A DNA stretch of 19,959 bases from positions 1 through 19,959 of IMG/VR virus record IMGVR_UViG_2585427777_000028; one strand, given 5' to 3'. The DNA is from a virus (lineage: Duplodnaviria; Heunggongvirae; Uroviricota; Caudoviricetes). The number at the start of each line of letters is the position of its first letter. Positions within the stretch are counted from its first letter, which is position 1. Both the position numbers and the translations under genes were made by a program. Shown here piece by piece: positions 3,566-19,959 of the stretch. The notes below the pieces were generated by a model. The model was given only the letters and a program-made list of their open reading frames with translations, was not told the origin of the DNA and ran no database searches.

Positions 3566-3583
3566 CGTTGCGTTGGTTATCTG

Positions 3584-4462: not shown

Positions 4463-4524
4463 GTCAATATTTCCTAAGACGATTTGTTGATACCGAAGCC
4501 CTGACTGTTACCGCAGTTGGGGCT

Positions 4525-4728: not shown

Positions 4729-4877
4729 ACCATTACCCCCTCTCTCTTCAAGCTGTCTATCAGGCGCTTGATAACCTCTGAGTTAAACGACCTGCACTCT
4801 TCCTTTGCCCTGCTACCTATAGCATCCTTTAACGACTGCGGCATCCTTACCAAAATCTTACTTATTTCTTTCTCCAT
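4725..4877 (-). CDS. arc: Arc-like ribbon-helix-helix repressor
   Basis: MPQSLKDAIGSRAKEECRSFNSEVIKRLIDSLKREG resembles P22 Arc (MPQFNLRWPREVLDLVRKVAEENGRSVNSEIYQRVMESFKKEG). Start taken at the ATG preceded by GGAGGG; the track start at 4913 is a TTG lying inside the promoter -10. Confidence 0.8.
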   Translation of the reverse strand: MEKEISKILVRMPQSLKDAIGSRAKEECRSFNSEVIKRLIDSLKREGVMV

Positions 4878-4913
4878 GTTACCCTCCACACAAACAACTC
4901 TTTTCGAATACAA

Positions 4914-4968
4914 AAGATAGCAAAGTGAGTATATCTAGTCAAAATTTTTTTGCATACACTTTGCTATC
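4914..4968. promoter_or_regulatory. divergent Pant / Pmnt control region with a 12-bp inverted repeat pair
   Basis: On the - strand, TTGACT, 17 nt, TATCTT lies upstream of arc. GATAGCAAAGTG (4916-4927) and its exact reverse complement CACTTTGCTATC (4957-4968) flank the region. Confidence 0.45.
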
Positions 4969-4991
4969 AAATTGAATACCAAAGGTGTGAT

Positions 4992-5240
4992 ATGGCAAAG
5001 GGTGTGTCAATTTCTCCAACTACGGTAAGAATCCCTGAATCTTTACGCGAGGCTCTTGCTGTCAGAGCATCAAAAAATGGTCGCTCTGTTAACTCCGAGA
5101 TCGTCATGATTTTGCAAGCCGCGATTGATGAAGATAGGTCGCCAAAGTCAGTTGAGTCATTTGCTCAGCAAGAAGCTGACAAATTCAAAGAGGCGCTGCT
5201 TGAGACGCTAAAGACCATGTATGCTAAGGATGAAAAATAA
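4992..5240 (+). CDS. mnt: Mnt-like ribbon-helix-helix repressor
   Basis: RIPESLREALAVRASKNGRSVNSEIVMILQAAIDE resembles P22 Mnt (the NGRS(V/M)NSE core is shared with Arc). ATG at 4992 is preceded by AAAGGTG. Divergent from arc. Confidence 0.8.
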   Translation: MAKGVSISPTTVRIPESLREALAVRASKNGRSVNSEIVMILQAAIDEDRSPKSVESFAQQEADKFKEALLETLKTMYAKDEK

Positions 5241-5776
5241 TGCTGCACACAATTCATTTCTTATGCCCCGTTAACACTGCCACTGTTGGGCAACTTCAGA
5301 ACCACTGTCTCACCGCATTATCTCAAGGCGCAACTGAATTAAATATCCATATATCAAGTCAGGGAGGGGAAACTGCCGCTGGCTTTACTGCGTATAACTT
5401 TCTTAAGTCACTCCCTGTTACCGTTAGAACTCACAACATAAGCAATGTTGAATCCATAGCTAATATCGTTTTCCTGGCTGGCTCAGAACGTTTCGCAAAC
5501 CCATTATCAAGATTCCTGTTACATCCTCTATTATGGTGCTTTGCCTCCCCAGCCGCCGACCATGCCAGATTGAGAGAGTACGGGAAATGCCTCGATAACG
5601 ATCTTGATCGCTTCGTTGAGACGTTCAATATCGACATCGGAACCCATATTAGGTGGGCATCCCTGATAGCAGACTCGACCATTTTGGATGCTAACAAGGC
5701 TCTTGAGCATGGCATAATTAATTCCATAAAAACTGCAAGGCTGGCATCCAATCAGGCAAACTGGTGGGTTGTTTGA
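5240..5776 (+). CDS. ClpP-fold (S14-like) serine peptidase
   Basis: IHISSQGGETAAGFTAYNFLKSLPVTVRTHNISNVESIANIVFLAGSERFANPLSRFLLHPL follows the ClpP core pattern (INSPGG...AG..IYD......V.T...GQAASMGAFLL.AG..GKR...PNSR.MIHQPL), with candidate Ser and His at the expected positions. Start overlaps the mnt stop (TAATG). Confidence 0.65.
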   Translation: MLHTIHFLCPVNTATVGQLQNHCLTALSQGATELNIHISSQGGETAAGFTAYNFLKSLPVTVRTHNISNVESIANIVFLAGSERFANPLSRFLLHPLLWCFASPAADHARLREYGKCLDNDLDRFVETFNIDIGTHIRWASLIADSTILDANKALEHGIINSIKTARLASNQANWWVV

Positions 5777-5805
5777 TGGGTAAATCATGATTACTCCTTA
5801 TAAAA

Positions 5806-5832
5806 AACCCACCTGACGGTGGGTTAATTTTT
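5806..5832 (+). terminator. rho-independent terminator after the mnt / ClpP-like operon
   Basis: AACCCACC-TGAC-GGTGGGTT hairpin followed by a T-rich run. Confidence 0.55.
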
Positions 5833-5915
5833 GCATTTACCTGGGCCATATTGACTACTTATAAAATGAGATCAATATTTAATCGCCCAATAACGGGTGT
5901 ATGTTGAGGTATATC

Positions 5916-6095
5916 ATGGCGAAAAAACCAGGTGAAAACACAGGAAAAAACGGCGGAATATACCAAGAAGTTGGCCCGCGCGGCGGTAAGAAAGACAATT
6001 TTGCCACCGTCAAGGACAACGAAAGGCTTCCACCAACAACAAAGCCAGGTCATGGCTGGGTATTAGATAAGCGAACTCCAGACAGCAAAAAGTAA
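5916..6095 (+). CDS. small Lys/Gly-rich hydrophilic protein, unknown function
   Basis: 59 aa (MAKKPGENTGKNGGIYQEVGPRGGKKDNF...) starting at the ATG preceded by GAGGT. Followed immediately by a terminator. Confidence 0.45.
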   Translation: MAKKPGENTGKNGGIYQEVGPRGGKKDNFATVKDNERLPPTTKPGHGWVLDKRTPDSKK

Positions 6096-6100
6096 TAATC

Positions 6101-6124
6101 AAGCCGGGTCACTCCGGCTTTTTG
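6101..6124. terminator. terminator hairpin between convergent genes
   Basis: AAGCCGG-GTCACT-CCGGCTT followed by TTTT on the + strand. The - strand gene's stop codon lies in the loop. Confidence 0.5.
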
Positions 6125-6474
6125 ATATGTCGCTCGCAGAACTCAACAAGCCTGCTCATTAAGTAGCAGTAAGTCTCGTTGGCTCTTCCTGGTTCAACAT
6201 CAACACCGACCCTTGAGCAGATATCGAATGCCATGTGAGCGCACTCATGGGCAATAGTAGATAGTTTGCCATTGAACACGCCTATCACATGCAAAACACC
6301 ATTCTCGCTGCTCATTGTATGAGACGCTCCGTTGGCATCCGAGTCCTGCACGTCCACACCAAGTTTTTGATGCAGGCGTTGCCATTCTGGAAAGTCTCTA
6401 CAAAACACAATTGTACCGCTCTCAAAGAGCGGAACGAGCATCTTTGGTACGTTTCCAATGTTAACTTTTTTCAT
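6109..6474 (-). CDS. small HExxH metallopeptidase-like protein (possibly ImmA/IrrE-type)
   Basis: Motif STIAHECAHMAF contains HExxH. Start taken at ATG (track M5) preceded by CAGGAT; the track start at 6486 is a GTG. Confidence 0.5.
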   Translation of the reverse strand: MKKVNIGNVPKMLVPLFESGTIVFCRDFPEWQRLHQKLGVDVQDSDANGASHTMSSENGVLHVIGVFNGKLSTIAHECAHMAFDICSRVGVDVEPGRANETYCYLMSRLVEFCERHIKKPE

Positions 6475-6504
6475 GGTATCCTGCACAAAACTAAGGAGGT
6501 TGGT

Positions 6505-6954
6505 GTGAGTGAAAAATTATCAGTTGAGATTTACAGGGATGCCAAAAAATTGATTAAAAAGGCATTGCTGATTTCCCTATCTTTGTTAGCCATTGCCATT
6601 GTTTATTTTGTGGCAGACAAAATCTATACAGAACAAAAAAATAGCAAAAAAAGCGCTGAACTGATTATGCGAGCCGAAAATGCTGTCAAGGGTACCCAAC
6701 CTAAGGTGTTCAATAGAACAGACCTTGGCGAAAGTCACTCTATTTCCATTTGGTTTATTAATGATTCAGATAAGCACATTCTTGTAGAAAAAAACGGTGA
6801 AAAATCGTTGTTTTCTACAGGAGGATATGTATCCGGTGATATCCATGCATATCATCAGGCCGGAAAGGCATGCGAAACCCTGTCTTTTTCTATGGATTCA
6901 AGTTCTGTGATATCCGCTTCTTGCGATTTTGATGATTATTACCTTAAAAAATAG
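6505..6954 (+). CDS. membrane-anchored protein of unknown function, at the position P22 uses for sieA
   Basis: GTG start 5 nt after AAGGAGG. N-terminal hydrophobic helix (ALLISLSLLAIAIVYFV) then a soluble domain. AT-rich. Divergent from the HExxH gene. The upstream 72 codons of the track ORF overlap that gene and are rejected. Confidence 0.5.
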   Translation: MSEKLSVEIYRDAKKLIKKALLISLSLLAIAIVYFVADKIYTEQKNSKKSAELIMRAENAVKGTQPKVFNRTDLGESHSISIWFINDSDKHILVEKNGEKSLFSTGGYVSGDIHAYHQAGKACETLSFSMDSSSVISASCDFDDYYLKK

Positions 6955-6971
6955 CCATCCATGGCGTCACC

Positions 6972-9140
6972 TCAATCCTGTGCCATTCCGCTTAGCGATG
7001 CCACAATCCCAGCCCTCGACAAACGCTGGAACTCTTCGTTTCCTAGTGCATCGCGAATTGCTTTTACGGCGGCCTTATTTGCCATAAATCTGCGTTCCGC
7101 CGCCGCTAATGCGCCATCACTTGCCCCAACTTTAACTGCCTTTGTCGCCTCTTGAACAGCCTTTTCAATAGCGTAACGACCACTTCTGGTTGCGGATAAT
7201 TTCGCTATCGATCCTTTTGCTATTGCATCAATTGCTCCACCTGCAGCGCCACCCACTATTGCTCCAATAACACCTCCTCCAGAGAACCCTGCGATAGCGC
7301 CAGCGGTTGGAAAAGCGCCAGACAATACGCTCTCTAAAACTGGATGAAGGCCATTCTCAAGAGTGCTAATGGCTGGCATAGAGCGCCCTGTTTGTTCAAC
7401 ATATCGAAGTGGCTTTGTTGCTGCTCTTGCAAGTTCTCCAAACCCCCTGGCAATCCTACCAAGCTCTGGAGAATATCGACTAATTGCCTTCACGTTTTGT
7501 GGGGTAAGAATAGTCGCGATATGCTTAATTCCAGCCTCTTCAGACTTACCTCCGCGTACCCCTTGCGATACCGCATCTTGTAATATTGATGCAATTGCTG
7601 GCGCGCGTTCCGACTCAGGTAGGGCGCTTATTATTTTATGGAACTGACCTGTTCCACTTTTTGCTGAACCCTGCAACGCCTTAGAGCCATTAGTTACCAA
7701 CTGATCAGTTGCAAGGTCTCTACCAAACGCTGCTTCAGCCTGTTCTTGTGCTGTAAATCTTGCTTTTGACAGATCATTAGCTTTTTGCCAGTCATCAAGA
7801 AAACCGCCATTTTGAGCCATTATGCGCATATCTTCCGTTGCTGCATCACGAAGCTCAGCCATGCGCCTTGCCGTATTTGCCTCACCAGACCTTATATACT
7901 TCTGCTCTGCGTCAGCAAGTTTACTTCGCCATGCCTTCATGGCATCAAACGTGATTCCTTTTTTACTAGTTTTAGCATAAGCAGATGCGAATTGTTTCAT
8001 CTCAGGAGTTAGCGGCATGCCGGCCAAAATATCACCCTGAATTGTAGCGTTCAGGTTTGACATTCTGGCCTTTGCGTCAGGCATCGTGGAGCGGACGCTA
8101 TCCCATGCGGCCTTTTCTGAATTTTTCATTTTATCAATACTTGCCAAAACCCTTTGTTTTATGGCTGCACTTTTTTCTGATGCAGTTCCTGCTTCAGCCC
8201 CAAACTCATCCAATGCTGAGTTAAATTTCGACTCTATTTCACTGAATGCTTTGGTGTGTGCATCCTGTGTAATTCCGGGCTTTGACGCCAGAATCCCCTC
8301 CGCCTGAGCAAGACCACGACTACCTGATCTCATGCCAGGAGTTAATGCGTTGATATCTATTCCAGCAGTATCTGCTGCTTTTGCTATTTCGTCTGACACA
8401 TTAGCTGACTGTCTGGCAATAATCTCTCTTCCTGTACCAGACTTTGCCATTTTCGAAACATCAGCAGCGGAATTTATTGCCCCGCCACCAAGAACTTGAG
8501 GTGATTTAGAGGTTAAGATCCTTCCAGCCCCAGAAAGTATCCCCTGAGCACCAATATTTATACCACCGTTAATGGCAGCATTTTGTGCAAAGTCGCCCTC
8601 CTGATTTGCAGCATCAGCAAGAGAACCTGCAATCATGTTTCCTGCGGAACCGATATCTCCAGCGAGCTTTGCTGGCGCTCCAGCAGCTTTTGCCGCTGTA
8701 CCAATTGGCAGGAGATACCCGCCAATTGTTTCACCGGCTTGCGCGTAATGGTCTGTCGGTCGATCGACTGGACGATAGACATCATCCAATACTTTTGGCC
8801 CACCAAGCCCCTGACTGATTGCATTAATCAGACTTGCGCCACCCTGTAATACGTCAAATGGTATGTTTACCAGACCACGACCAGCCTGTTCTGCAATTTG
8901 CCCTGCACTTTGACCACCTGTGAGCCAATCACCAGCTTGTTGCATCAATGATGGTTCTTCTTTCTGCTGCTGAGGTGGAGGGTATGCTGCATAAAACTGA
9001 TCTCTTGCTTCAGCCCATTTGTCACCAGCCTTAGGGGCAACAACCTCATCAAAATATTGCGCTTGAGCCTGTGCTTTCTGTTCTTCAGTTAACGCCTGAT
9101 ACTGTGGAGAAGCGATAACATCTTTCCATGCTTTAGCCAT
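6972..9140 (-). CDS. putative virion DNA-ejection (injection) protein
   Basis: 722 aa with a Gly/Ala-rich hydrophobic C-terminal segment ([36 protein letters not shown]). Lies just upstream, in transcription order, of the immI and tailspike region, where P22-like phages carry ejection genes. Assigned by position and composition, not by recognised homology. Confidence 0.5.
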
Positions 9141-9997
9141 TAATCACCCCATAAAGACGAGAAACCGGACTTATTGCTGTCGCTTCCTGATTTTCGCTCA
9201 CTAACATATGTGTCATAACCTGATGAACTATATCCCATTGATTCAGCCTCCCTTGCTGCAACCTTTTGAAATACAGAATATTGCGATCGGATTTCAGATA
9301 ACTGTTTTCTGACGACCTCTTCAGGCTGTGTTATATCGAGTTTCGCGATCAGGTTTTCCAGTTTTTGGCCTTCAGCATTGGAGAGGCTACCCATACCTCG
9401 CATAGTCTGCACGTTCTGGACAAACGCACCCGACTTTAATTCTTCTATCGCATTACGGTTTGCAAGCCCTTCAGCACTTGTGAAGCCATCTATATTTCTT
9501 CCTTCGAAGCGACCGATACCTTCAAGCTCCTTCTTACCAAGCAAAGAATCTATTTTCTCTATCCCTCGCTCACCAGTAATCAACGCATTGTTGTAATTAT
9601 TGTTGCCATCAAGCCATCTCTTAGCCTGAGACATTCTGGCTGACGTTGCAGCTTTACCGGTTAGAGGATCAATTCCCGTCGCTGCTATCTGTGAGTTAAG
9701 AGACAAAACATCCATATCCTGAAGTTGTCCTGCTCTTTCAAGGGCCGCCTGTGACTGCTTAAACACATACTTGTCGTGATTCAGTCTTGCCATTTGAGCC
9801 TTATAGGAAAGATCCTGCCCCCTAATAGCCCTCGCATTCGTCATGTCATTATTGCGAATGGTTTCGTTAATTCTTTGCTGCTCCTGCTGGCGACCAACCA
9901 TCTTGTCCTGAACAGCAAACGCCTTTTCTGGCCCAAGCGCACCGAGAGACATCGTAGTCAGCATGTGTGATAGTTGTTCATCTGACCAGATAGCCAT
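9140..9997 (-). CDS. putative virion DNA-ejection protein
   Basis: 285 aa; its stop overlaps the start of the 722-aa gene (TAATG). Gln-rich with coiled-coil-like stretches. The true start may be an internal Met because the upstream fragment overlaps it. Confidence 0.45.
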
Positions 9998-10230
9998 TGC
10001 TGACCAAGCGTTGGTGCGATTGTTGCTAACTGATTACCGGTTGCAGTGGAACCCAATCCACCTGTTGCTTCCGCTGCCGCCAGACTCTGATAGCGAGCCT
10101 GACCAGCAAGATCTTTGTACTGCTGAGAGTTGTAATACTGGTTAAGTGCCTGACCTTGCCCTTCCAGAGACGATAAGTTCTCGAGGCTGCCGACATACTT
10201 ATCAGCCAGAGGAGTATTCGATCTGTTTTC
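9958..10230 (-). pseudogene. 5'-truncated gene fragment (C-terminal ~90 codons of a virion gene) abutting the O remnant
   Basis: A - strand frame with no start codon reads ...[83 protein letters not shown]. It begins exactly where homology to O ends. Confidence 0.35.
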
Positions 10231-10424
10231 TTATTGAAGCCATATGTTTTCCGGACATAGGCCAGCATAACTTTCAACTGGCGAGCGGTTAAATCGGCAC
10301 TTGCGATAGCTTCCAGCAGCTCGTTAGCGAATCTGGTGTAACCATCATCGATATCAGCCACTCTTAGCTCCTGTTCGGCAAAGTTACCTCTGCCGAAGTT
10401 GAGTATTTTTGCTGTATTTGTCAT
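10026..10424 (-). pseudogene. O: truncated replication initiator O (N-terminal ~70 codons only)
   Basis: MTNTAKILNFGRGNFAEQELRVADIDDGYTRFANELLEAIASADLTARQLKVMLAYVRKTYGFNKKTDRI closely matches my recollection of the lambda O N-terminus. After about codon 70 the frame reads unrelated sequence to a stop. Confidence 0.7.
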
Positions 10425-10458
10425 AATGACCCCTGTGGATTGATCCAGTCTTTCTACA

Positions 10459-10737
10459 TCAGGCCTCGAAGAATTCGCCGTTCTTCGGGGCTTTTTCTTT
10501 TGTCAGCATTCTGGCTACTTTCTTAGCCAGTTCCGCCAACTCCTCGTCTTCAACACCCCATTCAAGAACAGCCAGAAGCATTCCCATTTTTGGGATGAAG
10601 CTGTCTTTCCATCGCGAAATTTGCGATTCATTAATCCCTAACGCGTCAGCAACCTTTCGCTGACCACGTACAGCAATTCGATTCAGGATGTTGCTTGTAA
10701 TTGCATTCGCTTTCTTGCGAGTACTTGTAAGTTGCAT
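10459..10737 (-). CDS. cII: CII-like transcriptional activator
   Basis: ILNRIAVRGQRKVADALGINESQISRWKDSFIPKMGMLLAVLEWGVEDEELAELAKKVARML resembles lambda CII (...SQISRWKRDWIPKFSMLLAVLEWGV...). Start taken at the ATG preceded by AAGGAAA; the longer track ORF would run through the nut site. Confidence 0.85.
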   Translation of the reverse strand: MQLTSTRKKANAITSNILNRIAVRGQRKVADALGINESQISRWKDSFIPKMGMLLAVLEWGVEDEELAELAKKVARMLTKEKAPKNGEFFEA

Positions 10738-10794
10738 ATGTAAGTATTTCCTTAACAAATAAGAAGTTATGCGCATCAACTTATGCGCGTTGTA

Positions 10795-10839
10795 TTCCCG
10801 CATTTCGGCGGGAATGAGGACCATGACTGTTAAAGAGCG
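10795..10839 (-). promoter_or_regulatory. nutR-like site (boxA + boxB) between cro and cII
   Basis: On the - strand: CGCTCTTTAACAG (boxA-like, rrn-type), a 12-nt spacer, then the hairpin TTCCCGC-CGAAAT-GCGGGAA. Confidence 0.55.
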
Positions 10840-10846
10840 GTGTTAC

Positions 10847-11074
10847 TTATGCTGCCAGAAGGTTCTTTTTGCTTATTTCAAGCATTTCGCTTGCTTGATA
10901 TTTGCCACCAGAAATCTCTTCGATTTTTGATGCGTATTTCGTTTTCCCAAAAAACTCAGTCTTAGGGAGGAAGCCGTTTTTGAGCCACTTATAGACAGCC
11001 CTTTCACTAACTCCACAAGCCTTCGCAACTTCAGGGATGCCGACACCTTTAATCGGCTCATCAAGATTTTGCAT
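10847..11074 (-). CDS. cro: Cro-like helix-turn-helix repressor
   Basis: 75 aa with HTH GIPEVAKACGVSERAVYKWLKNG. Divergent from cI, followed by nutR and cII. RBS AAGGA. Confidence 0.7.
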   Translation of the reverse strand: MQNLDEPIKGVGIPEVAKACGVSERAVYKWLKNGFLPKTEFFGKTKYASKIEEISGGKYQASEMLEISKKNLLAA

Positions 11075-11089
11075 AGGAATATCCTTTTT

Positions 11090-11152
11090 CGTACTTTCAG
11101 TACGTATTATGGTTGAACTGAAAGTTTTTGCAAGTGCTTTAGTATCGTACTC
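11090..11152. promoter_or_regulatory. cI-cro intergenic operator/promoter region (PR on the - strand; three dyad-symmetric elements)
   Basis: Dyads GTACTttcAGTAC (about 11091-11103), AACTgaaAGTT (about 11116-11126) and AGTAtcgTACT (about 11141-11151), centres roughly 24-25 bp apart. On the - strand TTGCAA, 17 nt, ATAATA fits a PR driving cro. Confidence 0.4.
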
Positions 11153-11860
11153 ATGGTTCAGAATGAAAAAGTGCGCAAAGAATTCGCCCAGCGGCTAGCG
11201 CAAGCCTGTAAAGAAGCTGGTCTTGATGAACATGGTAGGGGGATGGCCATAGCCCGTGCCCTTTCTCTTTCGTCCAAAGGCGTTAGCAAATGGTTTAATG
11301 CTGAGTCTTTACCGCGTCAGGAAAAAATGAATGCGCTTGCGAAATTTCTAAACGTTGATGTTGTTTGGCTTCAGCACGGCACTTCGTTAAATGGAGCGAA
11401 TGATGAAGATACTCTTTCATTTGTTGGCAAATTAAAAAAAGGGTTAGTGCGCGTGGTTGGTGAGGCAATTCTTGGTGTTGATGGTGCCATCGAGATGACC
11501 GAAGAGCGCGATGGGTGGCTCAAAATTTATAGCGATGATCCAGATGCCTTTGGCCTTCGTGTGAAAGGAGACAGCATGTGGCCCAGAATAAAATCAGGAG
11601 AATATGTACTCATTGAGCCTAACACCAAAGTATTCCCGGGTGATGAGGTGTTTGTCAGAACCGTTGAAGGACACAACATGATCAAAGTTCTTGGCTATGA
11701 CAGAGACGGAGAATACCAATTTACAAGCATCAACCAGGACCACAGGCCAATAACGTTGCCTTATCATCAAGTAGCAAAGGTGGAGTATGTGGCTGGTATT
11801 CTGAAGCAATCTCGCCATCTGGATGACATCGAGGCAAGGGAGTGGCTGAAAAGTTCGTGA
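11153..11860 (+). CDS. cI: CI-type prophage repressor (N-terminal HTH, C-terminal S24 LexA-like peptidase domain)
   Basis: C-terminal region contains GDSMWP (S24 catalytic serine motif). N-terminal HTH-like region. Divergent from cro. Confidence 0.85.
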   Translation: MVQNEKVRKEFAQRLAQACKEAGLDEHGRGMAIARALSLSSKGVSKWFNAESLPRQEKMNALAKFLNVDVVWLQHGTSLNGANDEDTLSFVGKLKKGLVRVVGEAILGVDGAIEMTEERDGWLKIYSDDPDAFGLRVKGDSMWPRIKSGEYVLIEPNTKVFPGDEVFVRTVEGHNMIKVLGYDRDGEYQFTSINQDHRPITLPYHQVAKVEYVAGILKQSRHLDDIEAREWLKSS

Positions 11861-11996
11861 CTTCATCGTCACATAGCTGGTAACCAGTGGCCTGAAGAGA
11901 CGTTTGGGTGATGTACATAGCATTTCTGGATAAAAATACAGATTCCCTTTATGGGAAATGAATCTATAATTCCCAAAGAGGGAACAAAATCGGATT

Positions 11997-12284
11997 ATGA
12001 AGGTCTTAAACGTAGAGAAGCTTCACAGTTTTAGCCGGAAGCACAATCAGGCCAAGGGGGCTTTAGACTCTTGGTATGATGAAGTGATAAGAGAAAACTG
12101 GAAAACGACTCAAGACATACGGAATAGATTTAATTCTGCCGACTTCCTTCCTAACAACAGGGTAATTTTTAATATAAAAGGCAATAACTATCGGCTCGTT
12201 GTCCAAGTTGTTTACCAGGCAGGAATGGTCATAGTTGAAAGAGTTGGAACTCATGCAGAGTACGACAAGTGGAGGCTTAAATGA
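11997..12284 (+). CDS. higB: HigB-family toxin (RelE-fold mRNA interferase)
   Basis: NRVIFNIKGNNYRLVVQVVYQAGMVIVERVGTHAEYD parallels E. coli HigB/YgjN (HYVFNVGGNELRVVAMVFFESQKCYIREVMTHKEYD). The toxin is encoded first, as in higBA. Confidence 0.8.
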   Translation: MKVLNVEKLHSFSRKHNQAKGALDSWYDEVIRENWKTTQDIRNRFNSADFLPNNRVIFNIKGNNYRLVVQVVYQAGMVIVERVGTHAEYDKWRLK

Positions 12285-12937
12285 ATCGAACTAGCTGGCG
12301 CATCATTAAAAATAGTGAAGAGCATGCTGCAGCTATGGAAAGGCTCATTGAACTTGCGTCTAGTGATTTACAACCTGGAACTGAAGATTTTGATGAGTTT
12401 GAACTACTAGGCTTGCTTATCGAGCACTATGAGTCACGCGAGTTCCCTATGGACAAGCCAGATCCCATAGAAGCAATCAAGTTCCGTATGGATCAACAAG
12501 GCCTCTCTTATGCCGATATGAAACAATACATTGGCTCAGCATCTAAAGTATCTGAGGTCTTAAATCGTAAGCGTCCATTAAGTCTTTCAATGATCCGTAG
12601 ACTACATGACGGACTTGGAATTCCTGCAGATATCTTAATTCAAGATATGAGCGCAATTGAATGGAGCCTAGTTGACGCAGAGGAAGAAGAAACAGCCATG
12701 ACTAGCGTCATTGCTCGGTGTGAGTCAGCCGTCACATCACCTTCTGCTTATTTCGCTGAAAAGGCTACAGAATCTTACTTTTCAAAAATGTTGTTCAGCG
12801 CAGTAAGGGGTAATGGCAAATGCAAAGAAAAACGGAATGTTTTTTCTTTGATAAGTAACTTGTCATCAAGTTTCACAGCGGCTAGCAACCTGAATGACGA
12901 AATGACTTCTGACGGAAATTACTTATTATTACCATGA
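12281..12937 (+). CDS. higA: HigA-like antitoxin (HTH) with a ~90 aa C-terminal extension, candidate chaperone-addiction region
   Basis: HTH segment LSYADMKQYIGSASKVSEVLNRKRPLSLSMIRRLHDGLGIPADILI is typical of HigA. Start overlaps the higB stop. At 218 aa it is much longer than usual HigA; the tail is Ser-rich and low-complexity. Confidence 0.75.
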   Translation: MNRTSWRIIKNSEEHAAAMERLIELASSDLQPGTEDFDEFELLGLLIEHYESREFPMDKPDPIEAIKFRMDQQGLSYADMKQYIGSASKVSEVLNRKRPLSLSMIRRLHDGLGIPADILIQDMSAIEWSLVDAEEEETAMTSVIARCESAVTSPSAYFAEKATESYFSKMLFSAVRGNGKCKEKRNVFSLISNLSSSFTAASNLNDEMTSDGNYLLLP

Positions 12938-13338
12938 AAATTGAACTCATTAGCAAAAAAGTTGAACGCTTGGTTATGACACGGCTAGAAGGCGATTCAA
13001 CAGCAAAAAAAGCCATAAAAACAACCGTTAATCTAAATAATGAACTCTACACTAATGTGAAGGATTCAAAGCTATTTAGAGTGAGATATTTTGCCTCCGT
13101 AACTATTGAAGGCAGGCTTGAGATGGACATCACATACGACTTTGACTTCCGGTCAGAAGATGATTTTTCTCATGAAATGGCAAAATCATATGAGGTAAGG
13201 TCCATTGCTCCCAATATGGCATATCCCTATATAAAAACATATGCCGAGCAAATTATCCTCATGTCAAACCTTGGTAGGTTCACTCTGCCTTATTTTGATT
13301 TCTTGGCCAATCCCATGGAAACGAACAGTAATAAGTGA
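12934..13338 (+). CDS. SecB-like chaperone, proposed third component of a TAC module
   Basis: APNMAYPYIKTYAEQIILMSNLGRFTLPYFDFLAN parallels the E. coli SecB segment [36 protein letters not shown] (shared PN..(F/Y)PY.(R/K) and hydrophobic pattern). Start overlaps the higA stop (ATGA). Confidence 0.55.
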   Translation: MKIELISKKVERLVMTRLEGDSTAKKAIKTTVNLNNELYTNVKDSKLFRVRYFASVTIEGRLEMDITYDFDFRSEDDFSHEMAKSYEVRSIAPNMAYPYIKTYAEQIILMSNLGRFTLPYFDFLANPMETNSNK

Positions 13339-13344
13339 AATTCC

Positions 13345-13373
13345 CCCCCCGGCCTCAGCGCCGGGTTTTCTTT
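13345..13373 (+). terminator. rho-independent terminator ending the cI-higB-higA-chaperone transcript
   Basis: CCCGGC-CTCAGC-GCCGGG hairpin followed by TTTTCTTT, directly after the chaperone stop. Confidence 0.55.
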
Positions 13374-13548
13374 GCCTCACGATCCCCACACCTAAAAACA
13401 CATAACCAATTGTATTTGTTGATGTAACTTGCTAAACCATGCAGTTCTGATCCCTGCCGCATAACCTTCATCAGCCACATTTTCAAAAATAAATTTCCTT
13501 ATATATCAGAATCATACTTCGTATAGTTAATAAATCACCAAAATTCGT

Positions 13549-13588
13549 ACCAATAGTTCTTGATAATGTCGAACTATTGGTTCATTAT
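13549..13588 (+). promoter_or_regulatory. candidate PL/OL region
   Basis: ACCAATAGTT and its reverse complement AACTATTGGT flank TTGATA, 17 nt, CATTAT. The arms resemble the AACTnnnAGTT dyad in the cI-cro region. Confidence 0.3.
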
Positions 13589-13634
13589 TGTCGCATCAGC
13601 AGGACGCTGGTAGCCAAACGGAACAGATTGGCAG

Positions 13635-13676
13635 GCTCTTTAACATTGATGGGATTGTCCCGCCGAAATGCGGGAA
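13635..13676 (+). promoter_or_regulatory. nutL-like site (boxA + boxB)
   Basis: GCTCTTTAACA (boxA-like), a 12-nt spacer, then hairpin TCCCGC-CGAAAT-GCGGGA. This is 19 of 20 identical to the nutR hairpin on the other strand. Confidence 0.55.
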
Positions 13677-13782
13677 CCAAAGAGTAGTTGGCTTTGGGGT
13701 GACGTGAAGTGCAGCTGCACGACGGCAACCGGAAGATAAGCACCCGGCGCGTCACCGCCAAAGTCAATCATCGGAGGTCAAC

Positions 13783-14082
13783 ATGACAGTAGTCATTACA
13801 TATCTTGCTGACGATAACGCCAGAAATCGCCGCAGAGCACGCAGACAGGCTCAACGTGAACAGGCAATGCAAGAGCAGCGACTGGCGCGAAAAATTGCGC
13901 TAAAGCTCTCTGGTTGCGTCAGAGCAGACAAAGCAGCATCACTAGGAAGCCTTCGCTGCAAGAAGGCAGAAGAAGTTGAGCGTAAACAGAACCGTATTTA
14001 CTACCGCAAGCCACGCAGTGAAATGGGTGTGACTTGTGTTGGTCGCCAGAAAATGAAATTAGGCAGCAAACCACTTATTTGA
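13783..14082 (+). CDS. N: N-like transcription antiterminator
   Basis: Arginine-rich motif near the N-terminus (DNARNRRRARRQAQREQ). First gene downstream of nutL, transcribed away from cI. RBS GGAGG. Confidence 0.6.
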   Translation: MTVVITYLADDNARNRRRARRQAQREQAMQEQRLARKIALKLSGCVRADKAASLGSLRCKKAEEVERKQNRIYYRKPRSEMGVTCVGRQKMKLGSKPLI

Positions 14083-14090
14083 GGTGAGAT

Positions 14091-14561
14091 ATGACAAAAT
14101 CATGGAGCGTACCTTTTCCTGAATCAGAAACTGAACATGATGGAATGCCTGTTTTCTGGAGATTCCAGGCGACAGTTGAAGAAGATGGGATAAAAATATT
14201 CGCACTTCAATATATAGCTTTTCATCAGACAGAGCATTATGCATGGTTGGTTCCTGCGCATTGGATTGTTAATTTTAAACCAGCACCAAATCAGTGGTTA
14301 CAGGAATGGAAACAAAGGAGAAATAGATATGCAATTAAGAAAGTAGCAAAAAATGCAGAAAGATCTTTTGCATTCCCAACGAAGAAACTTGCCATTGAGA
14401 GTTTATTGCGCCGGAAGAAATACCATTTAATGAGAATCAAACAAGATTTGGCTGTTGTATCAACTCTTGTTGATGGGATGAAGAATATTGATACATCAAC
14501 ACCAGATATTGAATATAACTTTGGGCACAACCAAGAAACAGAAAATTGGGTATTTTATTAG
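14091..14561 (+). CDS. hypothetical protein, first gene after N in the leftward early operon
   Basis: 156 aa with RBS GAGGTGAG. No family recognised. Confidence 0.5.
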   Translation: MTKSWSVPFPESETEHDGMPVFWRFQATVEEDGIKIFALQYIAFHQTEHYAWLVPAHWIVNFKPAPNQWLQEWKQRRNRYAIKKVAKNAERSFAFPTKKLAIESLLRRKKYHLMRIKQDLAVVSTLVDGMKNIDTSTPDIEYNFGHNQETENWVFY

Positions 14562-14665
14562 TACGAGTAAGCACTGTGTATTCATTCCAACGAGTGAATA
14601 CACGGAGCAATGTCGCTCGTAACTAAACAGGAGCCGACTTGTTCTGATTATTGGAAATCTTCTTT

Positions 14666-14690
14666 GCCCTCCAGTGTGAGGGCCTTTTTA
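14666..14690 (+). terminator. rho-independent terminator (tL-like) upstream of cIII
   Basis: GCCCTC-CAGTGT-GAGGGC followed by CTTTTTAT. Preceded at about 14574-14605 by a separate 9-bp-stem hairpin (GTGTATTCA ... TGAATACAC). Confidence 0.5.
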
Positions 14691-14752
14691 TATGCATAAC
14701 AATAACGCTTCACTCGAGGCGTTTTTCGTTATGTATAAATAAGGAGCACACC

Positions 14753-14893
14753 ATGCAATATGCCATTGCAGGGTGGCCTGTTGCTGGCTGCCCTTCCGAA
14801 TCTTTACTTGAACGAATCACCCGTAAATTACGTGACGGATGGAAACGACTCATCGACGTACTTAATCAGCCAGGAGTTCCCAAAAATGGATAA
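14753..14893 (+). CDS. cIII: CIII-like protein (protects CII from FtsH)
   Basis: MQYAIAGWPVAGCPSESLLERITRKLRDGWKRLIDVLNQPGVPKNG is near-identical to my recollection of lambda CIII, but shorter at the C-terminus. RBS AAGGAG. Confidence 0.8.
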   Translation: MQYAIAGWPVAGCPSESLLERITRKLRDGWKRLIDVLNQPGVPKNG

Positions 14894-14999
14894 AACACTT
14901 ATGGCTATCCAGACTAAATTCACTATCGCCGCTTTTATTGGCGATGAAAAGATGTTTCGTGAGGCCGTCGAAGCCTACAGAAAATGGAGGTCAAAATGA
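14886..14999 (+). CDS. kil: Kil-like protein (host cell-division inhibitor)
   Basis: MDKTLMAIQTKFTIAAFIGDEKMFREAVEAYRKW matches my recollection of the lambda Kil N-terminus. Overlaps the cIII stop. Confidence 0.65.
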   Translation: MDKTLMAIQTKFTIAAFIGDEKMFREAVEAYRKWRSK

Positions 15000-15184
15000 T
15001 TCCGGTAGAACTGGCGAAAACCACAGAGTTAAGTCGATTAAAAAGAGAATATCACATTGCTGAGGCTCGTTACTGGCGTAAAGCGGGAGATAAATCAAAG
15101 AAACAATTTTGCTTATGGCAGGCACAAAGAGAGCGCATGAATGAGCGCGAATTTCTTTCCGCCCCATCCGAATTACCATTCTGA
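14996..15184 (+). CDS. hypothetical small basic protein
   Basis: 62 aa from the ATG preceded by GGAGG. Overlaps the kil stop (ATGA). Confidence 0.4.
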   Translation: MIPVELAKTTELSRLKREYHIAEARYWRKAGDKSKKQFCLWQAQRERMNEREFLSAPSELPF

Positions 15185-15192
15185 GGTGAATT

Positions 15193-15873
15193 ATGGGAAC
15201 TGCGACATTAATACTCGGTGAGTCTGGCACCGGAAAATCAACCAGCATGAGAAATATCAATCCAGAGGAAGCAATACTTATAAAACCAATAGGCAAGCCG
15301 CTACCATTTAAATCAAAAGACTGGCTTGCATGGGATGCCAGAGCAAAAAAAGGAACCGTAGTTACCACTGACAAATGGGACGTAATAGTTGCTGCAATTA
15401 AGCGTGCTCACGAATACGGAAAAAGAATCGTTATTGTTGATGACTTCCAGTATGTGATGAGCAATGAGTTTATGCGCCGCTCAGAAGAAAAATCGTTTGA
15501 TAAATTTACTGAGATAGGCCGCCACGCATGGGAGGTGATTAAGGCTGCACAGGATGCACCTGATGACCTGAGAGTCTATTTTCTTGCACATACCGAAGAA
15601 ACCCCTATGGGGCGCGTGAAAATGAAAACTATCGGCAAAATGCTGGACGAGAAAATCACTGTCGAAGGCATGTTTACTATAGTTCTTCGCACTCTTACCC
15701 GCGATGACCAGTTCTTTTTCACCACGAAAAACAACGGTGCAGACACTGTCAAATCCCCAATGGGAATGTTTGATTCCAATGAGATTGATAACGATCTCTC
15801 TTTCGTCGATGCCACTGTTTGTGATTACTACGGCATCAATAATGTTCATCAAATTAAGGAAAGCGCCGCATGA
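15193..15873 (+). CDS. Sak4-like RecA-fold ATPase (phage recombination protein)
   Basis: Walker A GESGTGKST and Walker B-like IVIVDD. About 226 aa, sitting where lambdoid phages carry recombination genes. Confidence 0.55.
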   Translation: MGTATLILGESGTGKSTSMRNINPEEAILIKPIGKPLPFKSKDWLAWDARAKKGTVVTTDKWDVIVAAIKRAHEYGKRIVIVDDFQYVMSNEFMRRSEEKSFDKFTEIGRHAWEVIKAAQDAPDDLRVYFLAHTEETPMGRVKMKTIGKMLDEKITVEGMFTIVLRTLTRDDQFFFTTKNNGADTVKSPMGMFDSNEIDNDLSFVDATVCDYYGINNVHQIKESAA

Positions 15874-16457
15874 GCAACGTAATTTTTACTTATAACGAAG
15901 AAGCAGCACTGACCGCAGGGCAAGGTGGTTTTATTAACGAAACTGGCGCTCATATCATTACCATTACTGAAGCAGAACTAAAGCAATCAGAAAAAGGAGC
16001 CAAATTTATTGAGTTTTCTGGCGAATCCGACGACGGACGTAAAATCCAATATCTTAGCGTCTGTGTTCAGAAAAATGACGGAACGGAAAACAAATTTGGC
16101 GCAAATGTCGTTCACGCCATGATGGGGTGTGCCGGGATTGGACAATTAACGCAACATATGGTTTCCGCCAGTAAATTTGTTGCTCCTGAGTTTCATGGAA
16201 AGAAAATCGGGTTAGTGCTCCAGAAAGTATTAACCACAAACAAAAAGACTGGCGCAGACAGCTACCAGATGGAAATACGCATCCCGTTTATTGCACAAAC
16301 AGGTCAAACCCTTAAAGAAAAGGCGGAAGGCAAGCAACCAGAAACTATCGCCAACATGGTTGCCAGCCTCAAAGATAAAGACAATCGCTCTAAAAACGTA
16401 AGCCAGAATCATGCAGATGATTATGGTTACAACCAGAACGATTACCCTCCTTTCTGA
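15870..16457 (+). CDS. hypothetical protein, possible ssDNA-binding partner of the Sak4-like ATPase
   Basis: Translationally coupled to the ATPase gene (ATGA). C-terminal ...DYPPF is reminiscent of the SSB C-terminal tip (DDDIPF). No canonical OB-fold motif recognised. Confidence 0.35.
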   Translation: MSNVIFTYNEEAALTAGQGGFINETGAHIITITEAELKQSEKGAKFIEFSGESDDGRKIQYLSVCVQKNDGTENKFGANVVHAMMGCAGIGQLTQHMVSASKFVAPEFHGKKIGLVLQKVLTTNKKTGADSYQMEIRIPFIAQTGQTLKEKAEGKQPETIANMVASLKDKDNRSKNVSQNHADDYGYNQNDYPPF

Positions 16458-16480
16458 TTATTGAAAATAAGTCTCCCATT

Positions 16481-16777
16481 ATGCCAGCGCCTCTGTATGG
16501 TGCGGATGACCCGCGCAATTGCTCCGGTAGCTCCAAGGCGGAGGTGCTGGAAAATATCAAAAACAATTTCGACGCGTTTCTTGCTCTGACACCAGAAACA
16601 AAAGCAGAACGGATGTACCGACGCGATATACAACTCGCGCTAAAACAGGAGAAGGACCGAACAAACGAAACAGCAATGAGACCGTTGCGAAAAGCGACAA
16701 TAGACAAATTCCCTGAATATATCGACCCGCGCCTGCGTAATTACCGCTCTCGTTATGGCGCTATCAGTAATGACTGA
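16481..16777 (+). CDS. hypothetical protein
   Basis: 98 aa ORF in the same orientation as the early-left operon. Weak RBS; no family recognised. Confidence 0.35.
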
Positions 16778-16787
16778 GGAATTTACC

Positions 16788-16955
16788 ATGAGAGGACTTG
16801 CATACAATCCCGGCATTCTTCCGGCAGAAATGATTATTCGCCAACGCGTAAAGCCAATGCCATCGAGAGAGGAATTGCTTAAGAGAAATTCTTTTCCGTC
16901 AGTGAATCAAAACAAATATCTGAATGCGATGTGGCGCAAAGGAGGCAACCAGTGA
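16788..16955 (+). CDS. hypothetical small protein
   Basis: About 55 aa from the ATG preceded by GAGGA. Its stop overlaps the next gene's GTG start. Confidence 0.3.
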
Positions 16956-17692
16956 GCAAGATTGACTATCAGGCACTGCGTGAAAAGGCAGAGAAAGCAA
17001 CTAAAGGAAGCTACATCGTAGGGCATACATCTGTTAACCAGCACGGCAATTTAACAGGAGTTTTTGTTTGTCAAAAATGGAAAGGAGAACCCGGTGGCGT
17101 GATTGCAGAATGTCATGTTAACTGCCTGGTTGAAACAGATGTTCAGGCTTATGCAAACGCTGAATTTATTGCTGCTTTTAATCCAAATGTTGCGCTGGCA
17201 TTGTTGGATGAGATCAACGCATTAGAGGAAACGCGTATCAACGATGTTTGCCGTATTGCGGAACTAACAAAACAACTGGAGTTGGCAAAATCAAAACTCA
17301 ACGAGCAGCGTGAATATTACGAAGGTGTTATCTCGGATGGAAGTAAGCGTATTGCTGAACTGGAGAAAAGCGAAGAGCAACTCATTAACGAGCGTGACCA
17401 TGCTGAGTCTGCTTTAGCTGATATGTATTTTGCAGCAACCGGGGATAGGCCTGAGTGGAGTAACTGGTTCGGTTTTTCAGATGCAGTAGATGCCGTAGTT
17501 GACAGAATTGCTGATTTAGAAGCTAAACAGCCATCGCCAGTAGTACCTGAAGGACTGATTAAAGCGGTGCGTTTTTATGAGCAGGTAAAACGTGAGAACC
17601 CGCCAGTCGAAACCGGAGCATGGAAAGACGCTGTTGACTGGGTGCTCAAAGAGGCTTGCCAAGCTGTAAACATTGGCATCAAAGGAGAGTGA
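16952..17692 (+). CDS. hypothetical coiled-coil protein (possibly Ea22-like)
   Basis: GTG start 6 nt after AAAGGAGG. Central region has a coiled-coil character ([35 protein letters not shown]...[18 protein letters not shown]). Confidence 0.45.
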
Positions 17693-17693
17693 T

Positions 17694-18776
17694 ATGACCA
17701 CTATAACCGATAAGAAACAGTATCCAGGCGAGCAATATCTTAATGAGCTAATCACCAACATAGAGTTTGCTGCAAGGGCACCAGTTGAAGTCGTGAGAGC
17801 GATGGCAGCAGAGCTACAGAAGCGGCGCGAAGCTGATAGTGCAGAACCTGTAAGCCAAACTTACAAGTTAACTTTTGAGCAATGGCTGGAACAGCAGCAC
17901 GGCAAAATTGATATTGATTGCGGCTGTGTGAGCACTGAAACGCTTATGCACTGGATGCGTGTGGCGTATGAGGCTGGCAACTCTCCGGTAATTCCAGGGG
18001 AGGTGCTGTCAGCAATTATGAAGGTTGCCAGGGCTCGTGCCGATTTCGATGATTTTGACGGTGACAGGCGAGGTATCGGTGATTGTCTGGATGAGGCTGA
18101 GCAAGAGCTTATCGTTACCATTAACAAATATGCCAGTCAGTTGGCAGCAGAACCGATAGCGACTAATGACGTTCGAGAGCAGCAGACAGCCGTTCCGCCA
18201 ATACAGGCTGATGTCGCGCAAGCAATTGAAAATCTCAAGCAGAAGTTAGTGGAATGCAATCGCTATAACTACTGCGCAGATGCAGTTAAGGGCGTAGAGG
18301 ATGCCTGCCACGCTGCCATGCTTCAGGGTAGCCAACCTGTAAGCCAAACTTACAAGTTGCCAGTTAATACACCTTGCCAAGATGCGCCAGCCCATATCTG
18401 GCTGCAAACAGCTGGAGTATGGCCAGAAGATGGCGAGTTAAGCGAATTAACGTGGTGCAGCCACAATCAGCACCATGATGACACGCTATATGTTCGAGCT
18501 GACTTGGTAAATGGCAACTCTCCGGTAACTCCGGATGGTTGGATAAGCTGTAGTGAGCGAATGCCAGAAATGGGAGAGCGACAATGCTATGTGTTAGCAG
18601 CTGACTTTAAAAACAACTACCCACCAAACATCCCCAACACTCAGGTCGGCGTATATGGCGACTGGTTTAATGATGGCAATCCAACTTGGGATGACGGTGA
18701 TGGCGAAGACCTGTATCTCAAAGAGGTAACCCACTGGATGCCTCTACCAGAACCGCCTCGATTAAAGGAGCTATAA
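17694..18776 (+). CDS. phage protein with DUF551-like C-terminal domain
   Basis: C-terminal WISCSERMPE...YVLAAD...THWMPLPEPP resembles the DUF551 signature as I recall it. RBS AAAGGAGAG. Contains an internal 23-bp direct repeat. Confidence 0.5.
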   Translation: MTTITDKKQYPGEQYLNELITNIEFAARAPVEVVRAMAAELQKRREADSAEPVSQTYKLTFEQWLEQQHGKIDIDCGCVSTETLMHWMRVAYEAGNSPVIPGEVLSAIMKVARARADFDDFDGDRRGIGDCLDEAEQELIVTINKYASQLAAEPIATNDVREQQTAVPPIQADVAQAIENLKQKLVECNRYNYCADAVKGVEDACHAAMLQGSQPVSQTYKLPVNTPCQDAPAHIWLQTAGVWPEDGELSELTWCSHNQHHDDTLYVRADLVNGNSPVTPDGWISCSERMPEMGERQCYVLAADFKNNYPPNIPNTQVGVYGDWFNDGNPTWDDGDGEDLYLKEVTHWMPLPEPPRLKEL

Positions 18777-18890
18777 TAGTGAACTATTATATCTATTTGT
18801 ATTAAAAGAGTTTTTATAAAATAAATCTTCCAAAGCATGTAAAAACACTGTTAATCTTAACGTGTGTGAAACGTGAAGAGAGGTGTTGAA

Positions 18891-19172
18891 ATGAGCATTC
18901 ATGATTTGTGTGAAGATCAAGAGCAATGGGCTATGCAGACCCTTATGGGATCAGGAATTCTTGCAAGGTGCAGAATCCATAACGATGTAATTTTAGACAG
19001 CGGAAGTGATGCTTCTTCTGCTTATAAATTAGGAACTTACCTATATCAAAAAGATAATAGCTGCAACTTATTCAATACTCTTACTGAAGCCCGCGACGCA
19101 ATAAAGGATGCATATGAATCGTATTGTGGGATTGATGATTGCCCACAATGCTCAAAATACATTGACGATTAA
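18891..19172 (+). CDS. hypothetical protein
   Basis: 93 aa from the ATG preceded by AGAGGTG. Cys-containing C-terminal region (CGIDDCPQC). Confidence 0.4.
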   Translation: MSIHDLCEDQEQWAMQTLMGSGILARCRIHNDVILDSGSDASSAYKLGTYLYQKDNSCNLFNTLTEARDAIKDAYESYCGIDDCPQCSKYIDD

Positions 19173-19260
19173 TAATATGAACAAGTAACTATCCTCGCAC
19201 TCGCGGGGATTTCTTTTATCTGAACTCGCTACGGCGGGGTTTGTTTTTTTGAGATGATAA

Positions 19261-19428
19261 ATGCACTTTCGAGTCACAGGTGAATGGAATGGAGAGCCAT
19301 TCAACAGAGTTATCGAAGCAGAGAACATCAATGACTGCTATGACCACTGGATGCTATGGGCGCAGATAGCACATGCAGACATAACCAATATTCGAATTGA
19401 AGAACTGAAAGAACACCAAGCCGCCTGA
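19261..19428 (+). CDS. hypothetical small protein (55 aa)
   Basis: MHFRVTGEWNGEPFNRVIEAENINDCYDHWMLWAQIAHADITNIRIEELKEHQAA. Its stop codon lies inside a strong terminator hairpin. Weak RBS; below the ORF-track length cutoff. Confidence 0.3.
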   Translation: MHFRVTGEWNGEPFNRVIEAENINDCYDHWMLWAQIAHADITNIRIEELKEHQAA

Positions 19429-19440
19429 TGGCGGTTTTTT
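19418..19440 (+). terminator. rho-independent terminator
   Basis: GCCGCC-TGAT-GGCGG followed by seven T. Confidence 0.55.
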
Positions 19441-19451
19441 TGGGGTAGTAG

Positions 19452-19667
19452 ATGGCTGAAATTCACATTATATCAATAACTTGTAATGCAATTCAGATAG
19501 TTGCTTGCATTATCTTTATTTTCTCAATCCTTCGCTCCAGACGATATTCTCCAGCAATTAACCGACATCCTGCACAAGTTGAAGCCGTCAGGATGGCTAT
19601 AGAGTTACGAAATGAGATGAATAAGGCATTAATGGAGATGGGGAAACCATTCACTGACAAACATTAA
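19452..19667 (+). CDS. hypothetical small protein with N-terminal hydrophobic segment
   Basis: 71 aa ORF starting just after the terminator. No recognisable family; coding status uncertain. Confidence 0.25.
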   Translation: MAEIHIISITCNAIQIVACIIFIFSILRSRRYSPAINRHPAQVEAVRMAIELRNEMNKALMEMGKPFTDKH

Positions 19668-19767
19668 GAGTGGAAATAAAGAAATCACACCGCCTCACAC
19701 TCGATGAGGCCTGTTCATATCTGATAGAGCTGCTATATGGCGGTTTCTTTTTGCCTGGAGAATTAAG

Positions 19768-19959
19768 ATGACCGATACCATCCTGATTCCTGAGAAAGAA
19801 GTGATGAACAAGCTCGGTGTTTCATCACGTCAGACAATCTGGAACTATACCAAACGGCACGGATTTCCGAAGCCAGTCAGAACCCACCCCAAATCATACC
19901 TTCGTGAAGCTGTTGAAGGGTGGATTCTTAACGGTGGCGTTAATCAGAAATGCTCCTGA
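19768..19959 (+). CDS. AlpA/excisionase-family DNA-binding protein (probable excisionase)
   Basis: ILIPEKEVMNKLGVSSRQTIWNYTKRHGFPKPV fits the AlpA/Xis-type HTH pattern. RBS GGAGA. Its position at the end of the early-left operon implies an integrase just beyond the window. Confidence 0.6.
   Translation: MTDTILIPEKEVMNKLGVSSRQTIWNYTKRHGFPKPVRTHPKSYLREAVEGWILNGGVNQKCS

Follow-up and report, generated by a model that had tools for sequence, protein, structure and literature searches.

HigBAC, a published toxin-antitoxin-chaperone anti-phage system, very probably occupies the rexAB slot of a defective P22-like prophage

The window analyzed here is a 19,959-nucleotide (nt) stretch of tailed-phage DNA (Caudoviricetes; positions 1 to 19,959 of IMG/VR record IMGVR_UViG_2585427777_000028), in which a cassette of three genes (11997-13373) directly follows a cI-like repressor gene. 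We identify this cassette, with high confidence, as the toxin-antitoxin-chaperone (TAC) anti-phage system HigBAC, lodged in the rexAB slot of a lambdoid/P22-like prophage. HigBAC was described from a lambdoid prophage of Escherichia coli NT1F31 (Mets et al., bioRxiv 10.1101/2024.02.24.581848; Cell Host & Microbe 2024), and that 2024 work, done on an allele almost identical to the one here, already covers the system and where it sits, its need for the chaperone, what triggers it, and the activity of its toxin. An earlier note, made from the sequence of the window, had proposed a TAC module of mycobacterial architecture at this locus, with a HigB-family toxin, a HigA-like antitoxin carrying a Ser-rich C-terminal extension, and a SecB-like third protein, as a candidate anti-phage module; it missed that the system had already been named and characterized.

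The three genes are co-oriented and tightly linked, lie on the same strand as cI, and follow the toxin-antitoxin-chaperone order of a TAC system. A 4-bp ATGA overlap is found at each of the higB/higA and higA/higC junctions, and the run ends at an intrinsic terminator, as the earlier note had described. Between the cI stop codon and the higB start lies a gap of 136 nt. The cro-like and cII-like genes are on the minus strand, divergent from cI and higBAC, and a weak N-like open reading frame (ORF) is present on the plus strand 3' of the module (13783-14082). The cI-like gene upstream defines the slot as the rexAB equivalent: the succession from cI through the three genes and the terminator to the pL/N region is that in which phage lambda carries rexAB.

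The likeness to the NT1F31 system embraces gene order, gene sizes, functional residues, and the place after cI in a lambdoid prophage. In NT1F31, HigBAC lies downstream of the cI repressor, where classical lambda encodes RexAB; its HigA is a protein of 218 amino acids (aa) with a C-terminal ChAD at residues 122-218 that displays the aromatic anchors W128, F158, F188, and Y214, and its chaperone, HigC, has a pocket with Y39, N41, R49, and D71, of which R49 is essential (bioRxiv 10.1101/2024.02.24.581848). All eight of these residues mapped by Mets et al., four in HigA and four in HigC, are found in the window proteins, the HigA anchors at exactly the published positions. For the nucleotide comparison we used the higB fragment in Dataset S1 of that study (the first ~400 nt of the TAC region) together with the primers. 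The window higB differs from that of NT1F31 at 1 of 288 nt, with I31 here and R31 in NT1F31, and the 150 bp upstream of higB differ at 7 positions. The footprints of 24 NT1F31 primers, distributed over higA, higC, and the terminator, show 0 to 1 nt differences in their locus-specific part; from one of them (oKE89), residue 185 of HigA appears to be Q in NT1F31, as against R here. Taken together, the eight residues, higB, the primer footprints, and the layout indicate that the window holds a near-identical HigBAC allele. Over all 1,377 nt, moreover, the module differs from that of phage BP-4795 at only two nucleotides, namely, a silent change in HigC codon 38 (13047) and an A-to-C change in the run of C residues that leads up to the terminator stem (13347), and NT1F31 has the BP-4795 base at both. 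What sets the window apart from NT1F31 is that its allele is the common one of Shiga toxin (Stx) phages and that its host element is a deleted P22-like prophage.

The individual proteins bear out these assignments. HigB matches the Pfam family HigB_toxin (PF09907; E = 4.5e-30; 104.2 bits against a cut-off of 27) over profile positions 2-74 of 74, as well as the PADLOC model PD-Lambda-2_A (2.5e-42), and is distantly related to the solved HigB structures of E. coli K-12 (Protein Data Bank [PDB] code 5ifg, 1.3e-4; 5ycl/5ifg, about 1e-4). Residues 53-119 of HigA match the PDB HigA (5ycl/5ifg, about 6e-5), and the protein is also recovered by PADLOC PD-Lambda-2_B (3.8e-50), a match restricted to profile positions 3-125 of 402. 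The C-terminal 97 residues of HigA are indeed rich in Ser (16.5%, against 9.1% in the N-terminal domain). In an AlphaFold2 model built with 24 homologues, the predicted local distance difference test score (pLDDT) exceeds 90 for most of residues 1-126, and residues 127-218 fall below 50 and lack secondary structure, as expected of an unstructured ChAD. Canonical HigA relatives (about 126-132 aa) stop at the helix-turn-helix (HTH) domain, but Klebsiella, Salmonella, Serratia, and Citrobacter have extended relatives of 218-229 aa. Across five genera the length of the tail is kept and its aromatic anchors are largely kept, and the exact 218-aa protein is found in at least 1,000 public contigs. 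Because there are full-length relatives across genera and because the exact protein is so abundant, we consider the tail to be genuine and not the product of a frameshift, an artifact that the earlier note had named as a danger to its proposal.

The third protein, HigC, gave no Pfam or NCBIfam match and no relevant PDB sequence match in phmmer searches; the best of the latter, to an RNA polymerase subunit (E = 0.09), is a chance match. Its AlphaFold2 model (pLDDT, 88.3; predicted template modeling score, 0.81) displays four strands and a long helix. A Foldseek search of the PDB with this model recovered, as the best 19 matches, exclusively SecB or the SecB-like chaperone of Mycobacterium tuberculosis, with template modeling (TM) scores of 0.61-0.77 and a probability of 1.00. 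The top match is 5mtw (M. tuberculosis Rv1957 SecB-like chaperone with a ChAD peptide), and 5mtw and the SecB structures 1qyn and 1fx3 score 0.72-0.77, each with a probability of 1.00. Since the sequence searches returned nothing, the relationship of HigC to SecB is set by the fold, and the predicted structure is a SecB fold. The earlier claim that the third protein matches the client-binding region of SecB accordingly fails at the level of sequence; the link to SecB is seen in the fold and through the PADLOC model PD-T4-9_C (CmdC), which matches HigC over its full length (3.2e-11). Across 21 HigC homologues, three of the pocket residues (N41, R49, and D71) never vary, and the conservation of the fourth, Y39, is at least 90%.

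How the system works has been established for the NT1F31 allele (Mets et al., bioRxiv 10.1101/2024.02.24.581848). HigBA poisons cells that lack HigC, supplying HigC rescues them, and HigB specifically blocks protein synthesis. Removal of residues 122-218 renders HigA chaperone-independent, and rescue by HigC is lost with a triple aromatic mutant of the ChAD or with HigC R49A. HigBA toxicity remains in clpP, clpX, and lon mutants, which argues that HigA fails by aggregation or instability and not through degradation by ClpXP as in M. tuberculosis. The system protects against lambda-vir and Bas25. Escape mutants of lambda-vir carry the substitution S54P in gpV, which copurifies with HigC, binds HigC in vitro, and triggers toxicity upon coexpression; W67 of gpV mimics the aromatic anchors of the ChAD, and in the model of Mets et al. 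gpV and the ChAD compete for HigC. The anti-phage role envisaged in the earlier note is thus a published one, with toxicity, HigC rescue, ChAD deletion, and phage protection all on record for an almost identical allele.

Given the similarity of the two sequences, we infer that the window allele behaves like that of NT1F31. In the uninfected cell, tetrameric HigC would bind the disordered, aggregation-prone ChAD of HigA via its four aromatic anchors; HigA bound in this way would stay soluble, and its N-terminal domain would neutralize the HigB ribonuclease. Upon infection by a lambda-like phage, the newly made major tail protein gpV, with its aromatic pattern W36 and W67, would compete for HigC. 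HigA left without the chaperone would then fail, and HigB would stop translation, restricting phage production. Expression of higBAC in the lysogen would presumably come from read-through of the cI transcript, from a promoter of its own, or from both.

Several points weigh against this picture. The published experiments concern the NT1F31 allele, from which the window allele differs at I31 of HigB and R185 of HigA, and the identity of higA and higC with their NT1F31 counterparts is gauged from primer footprints, which cover less than half of each gene, and from residue numbering. The defense assays employed a constitutive Ptet promoter on a plasmid, not native prophage expression, and at a multiplicity of infection of 10 lambda-vir still collapses the HigBAC culture, albeit more slowly (bioRxiv 10.1101/2024.02.24.581848), so that classic abortive infection is not clearly established. 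Finally, the resident prophage is defective, and transcription from its immunity region is an assumption.

Some of these points would also suit a different principal function, in which higBAC is mainly an addiction or stabilization cassette that holds the (defective) prophage by killing the cells that lose it, with defense a side effect of overexpression from a plasmid. Type II toxin-antitoxin modules are classically tied to maintenance, and the host prophage lacks replication, lysis, and head genes yet has HigBAC intact; the Ptet-driven assays are of a piece with this view. However, an addiction role would not predict the gpV trigger, escape through a single residue (S54P), or direct binding of gpV by HigC, and HigBAC occupies a known variable defense slot after cI in many intact phages. 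We therefore regard addiction as the main role as improbable, while noting that addiction and defense are not mutually exclusive.

Assignment of the module to PD-lambda-2 is far less probable still, although the strongest PADLOC matches, those of HigB and HigA, are to components A and B of that system. PD-lambda-2 possesses a homologous HigB-like toxin and HigA HTH domain and likewise protects against lambda-vir (Vassallo et al. 2022), but by definition its HigA HTH is fused to a C-terminal ImmA/IrrE-type peptidase and its third protein is related to a P4 phage antitoxin, and neither the peptidase domain nor the P4-antitoxin-like component C is present in the window module. The component B match is confined to the HTH part of HigA, the tail being disordered and devoid of any domain match, and HigC, with its SecB fold, matches PD-T4-9_C and not PD-Lambda-2_C. 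We therefore reject membership in PD-lambda-2, with which the module shares only the "warhead" of HigB and the HigA HTH. The idea that an unrelated phage gene simply lies behind an ordinary two-gene higBA pair, with the HigA tail an annotation or frameshift artifact, draws on the annotation of the third gene as a hypothetical protein and of HigA as a generic HTH protein and on the missing Pfam and NCBIfam matches of the third ORF, but is dismissed as next to impossible by the cross-genus conservation of the tail length and anchors and of the overlaps and sizes of the three genes, by the confidently predicted SecB fold of HigC, and by the published genetics of chaperone dependence in NT1F31.

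HigBAC thus stands as the identification of the cassette, and its relationships to other systems can be stated more precisely. HigBAC and the M. tuberculosis TAC system (HigB1-HigA1-Rv1957) have the same gene order (toxin, antitoxin, chaperone), an antitoxin in which an HTH domain is followed by a C-terminal ChAD, and a chaperone with the SecB fold, in line with the mycobacterial architecture of the earlier proposal. The chaperones superpose with TM scores of 0.72-0.75 (5mtw) but are only 16-17% identical in sequence. The ChAD of HigBAC, at 96-97 aa, is more than twice as long as the mycobacterial one and bears four aromatic motifs ~30 residues apart. Unlike that of M. tuberculosis HigA1, inactivation of NT1F31 HigA is independent of ClpXP and Lon, and the published role of HigBAC, unlike that of the mycobacterial system, is phage defense with a tail-protein trigger. 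These departures from the mycobacterial paradigm in ChAD length and motifs and in protease independence are already published. CmdTAC/PD-T4-9 (Vassallo et al. 2022, 2024) is likewise a prophage-borne TAC defense system, and its CmdC is homologous to HigC; it differs in having an mRNA ADP-ribosyltransferase as the toxin and an unrelated antitoxin that ClpXP degrades, and in targeting T-even phages rather than lambda-like siphoviruses. HigBAC lies where lambda has RexAB, on the cI strand, after cI and ahead of the terminator that precedes pL/N, and the two have the same general role of a prophage-encoded exclusion system. They are unrelated in sequence and in mechanism, RexAB being a two-protein system that depolarizes the membrane.

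Upstream of higB we found a putative promoter-operator. Two palindromes of the form TTCCC-N5-GGGAA (11943-11957 and 11970-11984), 27 bp apart, surround a perfect TATAAT (11965-11970) that lies 27 nt upstream of the higB ATG. These elements were first spotted by reading the sequence and were then tested separately. TTCCC-N5-GGGAA occurs twice in the window, and nowhere but here, against an expectation of 0 in 200 shuffles. Both palindromes and the TATAAT are kept in the loci of BP-4795, E. coli O26:H11 strain 11368, strain XJ23PTE1, Klebsiella, and Serratia, while the flanks diverge. A sigma-70 scan of the region upstream of higB flagged no promoter, a miss that we attribute to a weak -35 element. 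Operons of the higBA type are known for autoregulation through promoter palindromes, and the two conserved palindromes are probably HigA operators. Operators for higBAC are not mentioned in the preprint (bioRxiv 10.1101/2024.02.24.581848).

The features of the locus are collected in Table 1. The terminator stem, of 6 bp and all GC, begins 10 nt after the higC stop codon (terminator scan). As its hairpin energy (-12.4 kcal/mol; z = -1.06 against shuffles) is not exceptional, the call is based not on folding energy but on the canonical architecture of stem and U-tract and on published usage: Mets et al. name the equivalent of 13348-13373 the "native terminator" in their constructs (bioRxiv 10.1101/2024.02.24.581848). 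Their primer MT16_terminator_rev anneals at this terminator with 1 mismatch in 20. No known RNA family was detected in or around the module, the sole match at E < 1 being a chance one to a snoRNA model (21 bits; gathering score, 60). The segment had also been called AT rich in the earlier note; this is mildly true (40.2% GC for the module and 37.5% for higC, compared with 43.6% for the window) but does not hold in any strong sense.

Table 1. Coordinates of the HigBAC module and adjoining features in the window
Feature	Position	Strand	Basis and remarks
cI-like repressor gene	11153..11860	+	Peptidase_S24 (4.4e-16) plus HTH_3; context, outside the HigBAC module
Putative higBAC promoter-operator	11943..11984	+	Two palindromes around TATAAT
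higB, HigB toxin of the RelE superfamily, 95 aa	11997..12284	+	Pfam, PADLOC, and PDB matches
higA, antitoxin, 218 aa	12281..12937	+	HTH_3 match; HTH domain ~1-121, ChAD extension 122-218
higC, SecB-like toxin-antitoxin chaperone, 134 aa	12934..13338	+	Predicted fold; pocket residues Y39, N41, R49, D71
Intrinsic terminator	13348..13373	+	Stem CCCGGC / GCCGGG (13348-13365), then TTTTCTTT

The module is widely distributed. Thirty phage records contain its 1,377 nt at 99% identity or higher; almost all are of Stx1- or Stx2-converting phages, and BP-4795 and ST2-8624 carry it as well. It is also found in 88 of 5,426 complete E. coli genomes, chromosomally in all, many of them Shiga-toxin (STEC) strains. 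HigB, HigA, and HigC are identical to ORF22, ORF21, and ORF20 of BP-4795 and to WP_000866443.1, WP_001082382.1, and WP_000687675.1 of the O26:H11 strain 11368, and each exact protein sequence recurs in at least 1,000 public contigs. All the lambdoid loci inspected (BP-4795, where cI is annotated; O26:H11; XJ23PTE1; and Klebsiella) have the module after a cI-like gene, and Serratia has the same three genes in another phage context; Klebsiella and Serratia retain the 4-bp overlaps and the sizes of the three proteins (95, about 220, and 134 aa). In RefSeq and GenBank, HigC is annotated as a "hypothetical protein" and HigA as a generic "helix-turn-helix domain-containing protein."

No phage record and no complete E. 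coli genome covers as much as 80% of the window. The sequence of the element that carries the module in the window marks it as a defective prophage. Within 9140-10424 (minus strand), only ~70 N-terminal codons of its O-like replication gene are left, and this remnant is joined out of frame, at a junction at about 10205-10231, to a gp20-like DNA-transfer gene that is itself without ~165 N-terminal codons. By comparison with the P22-like phage JEP4, the genes missing between O and the gp20-like gene are those for helicase/replication, nin, Q, lysis, terminase/packaging, portal, and capsid/head. The cI gene is of hybrid origin. From about 11407 on, the C-terminal S24 half is >99% identical to the cI of BP-4795 and O26:H11 and contiguous with HigBAC, whereas the N-terminal half, which binds DNA, has no relationship to that of BP-4795 and O26:H11 but is shared with strain XJ23PTE1. 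This places the recombination point inside cI, so that the C-terminal domain of cI and the cassette move together.

Two further genes of this element deserve mention. In a 912-aa tailspike (619-3357, minus strand), a P22 head-binding domain (1.2e-63) occurs together with an N-terminal extension of the endosialidase type and a Peptidase_S74 intramolecular-chaperone domain, a domain architecture that points to a P22-like podovirus with a spike degrading K1-type or other polysaccharides. The other, a plus-strand ORF of 178 aa (5240-5776) in which a Clp-protease domain is recognized (2.2e-11), has the DNA-transfer genes on one side and the antirepressor on the other and adjoins the unannotated ORFs 4950-5240 and 6289-6954; it may represent further accessory or defense cargo in an immI-like region.

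Divergence within the cassette is uneven. Relative to the allele of XJ23PTE1, with which it shares 95% identity (window 12644-13338 compared with 3648-4342 of the XJ23PTE1 locus), there are 2 amino acid changes in HigB, 0 in residues 1-121 of HigA, 14 in the ChAD, and 16 in HigC, and all 14 changes of HigA fall at residues 139-218. Synonymous divergence (dS) is 0.04 in higB and climbs to 0.23 in higC. Omega is 0.45 in the ChAD and 0.25 in HigC, and does not exceed 0.45 in any segment; these values denote raised divergence and no positive selection, and we accordingly discarded positive selection on the ChAD and HigC as a candidate. The pattern rather suggests that the ChAD and HigC have been exchanged as one unit.

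We also compared gpV with the major tail protein of the long-tailed HigBAC carrier BP-4795 (22188-23033). No similarity was found in the gpV trigger region (residues 36-78), a weak negative in that the gpV query was checked only against the residue numbering and primers of the paper, and the only alignment, of 25 aa at E = 0.003, lies outside that region. This would fit with BP-4795 not triggering its own system.

As a discovery the locus adds little, since the experiments proposed for it are published for essentially the same sequence and locus. The palindromic promoter region, the defective prophage, the hybrid cI, the divergence of the ChAD and HigC, and the tail-protein comparison with BP-4795 are small additions beyond the published paper. 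Its practical value is one of annotation: HigC and HigA are labeled generically, and the same cassette resides in the medically important Stx1 and Stx2 phages. It may also be of use for questions of native regulation and sensor evolution, through the conserved palindromes that resemble operators, the survival of the cassette in a prophage with deletions, and the divergence that the ChAD and HigC display together. In this regard we tentatively propose, as a possibility that we would place somewhat below even, that the cassette has its own HigA-autoregulated promoter, which would act independently of cI and even in decayed prophages; that it affords native superinfection exclusion by the Stx prophages of STEC against siphoviruses with gpV-type tail tubes; and that the ChAD and HigC form a sensor unit that can be exchanged and whose two parts diversify jointly. 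If native exclusion in STEC is true, it would influence which phages, other Stx phages included, spread in these pathogens.

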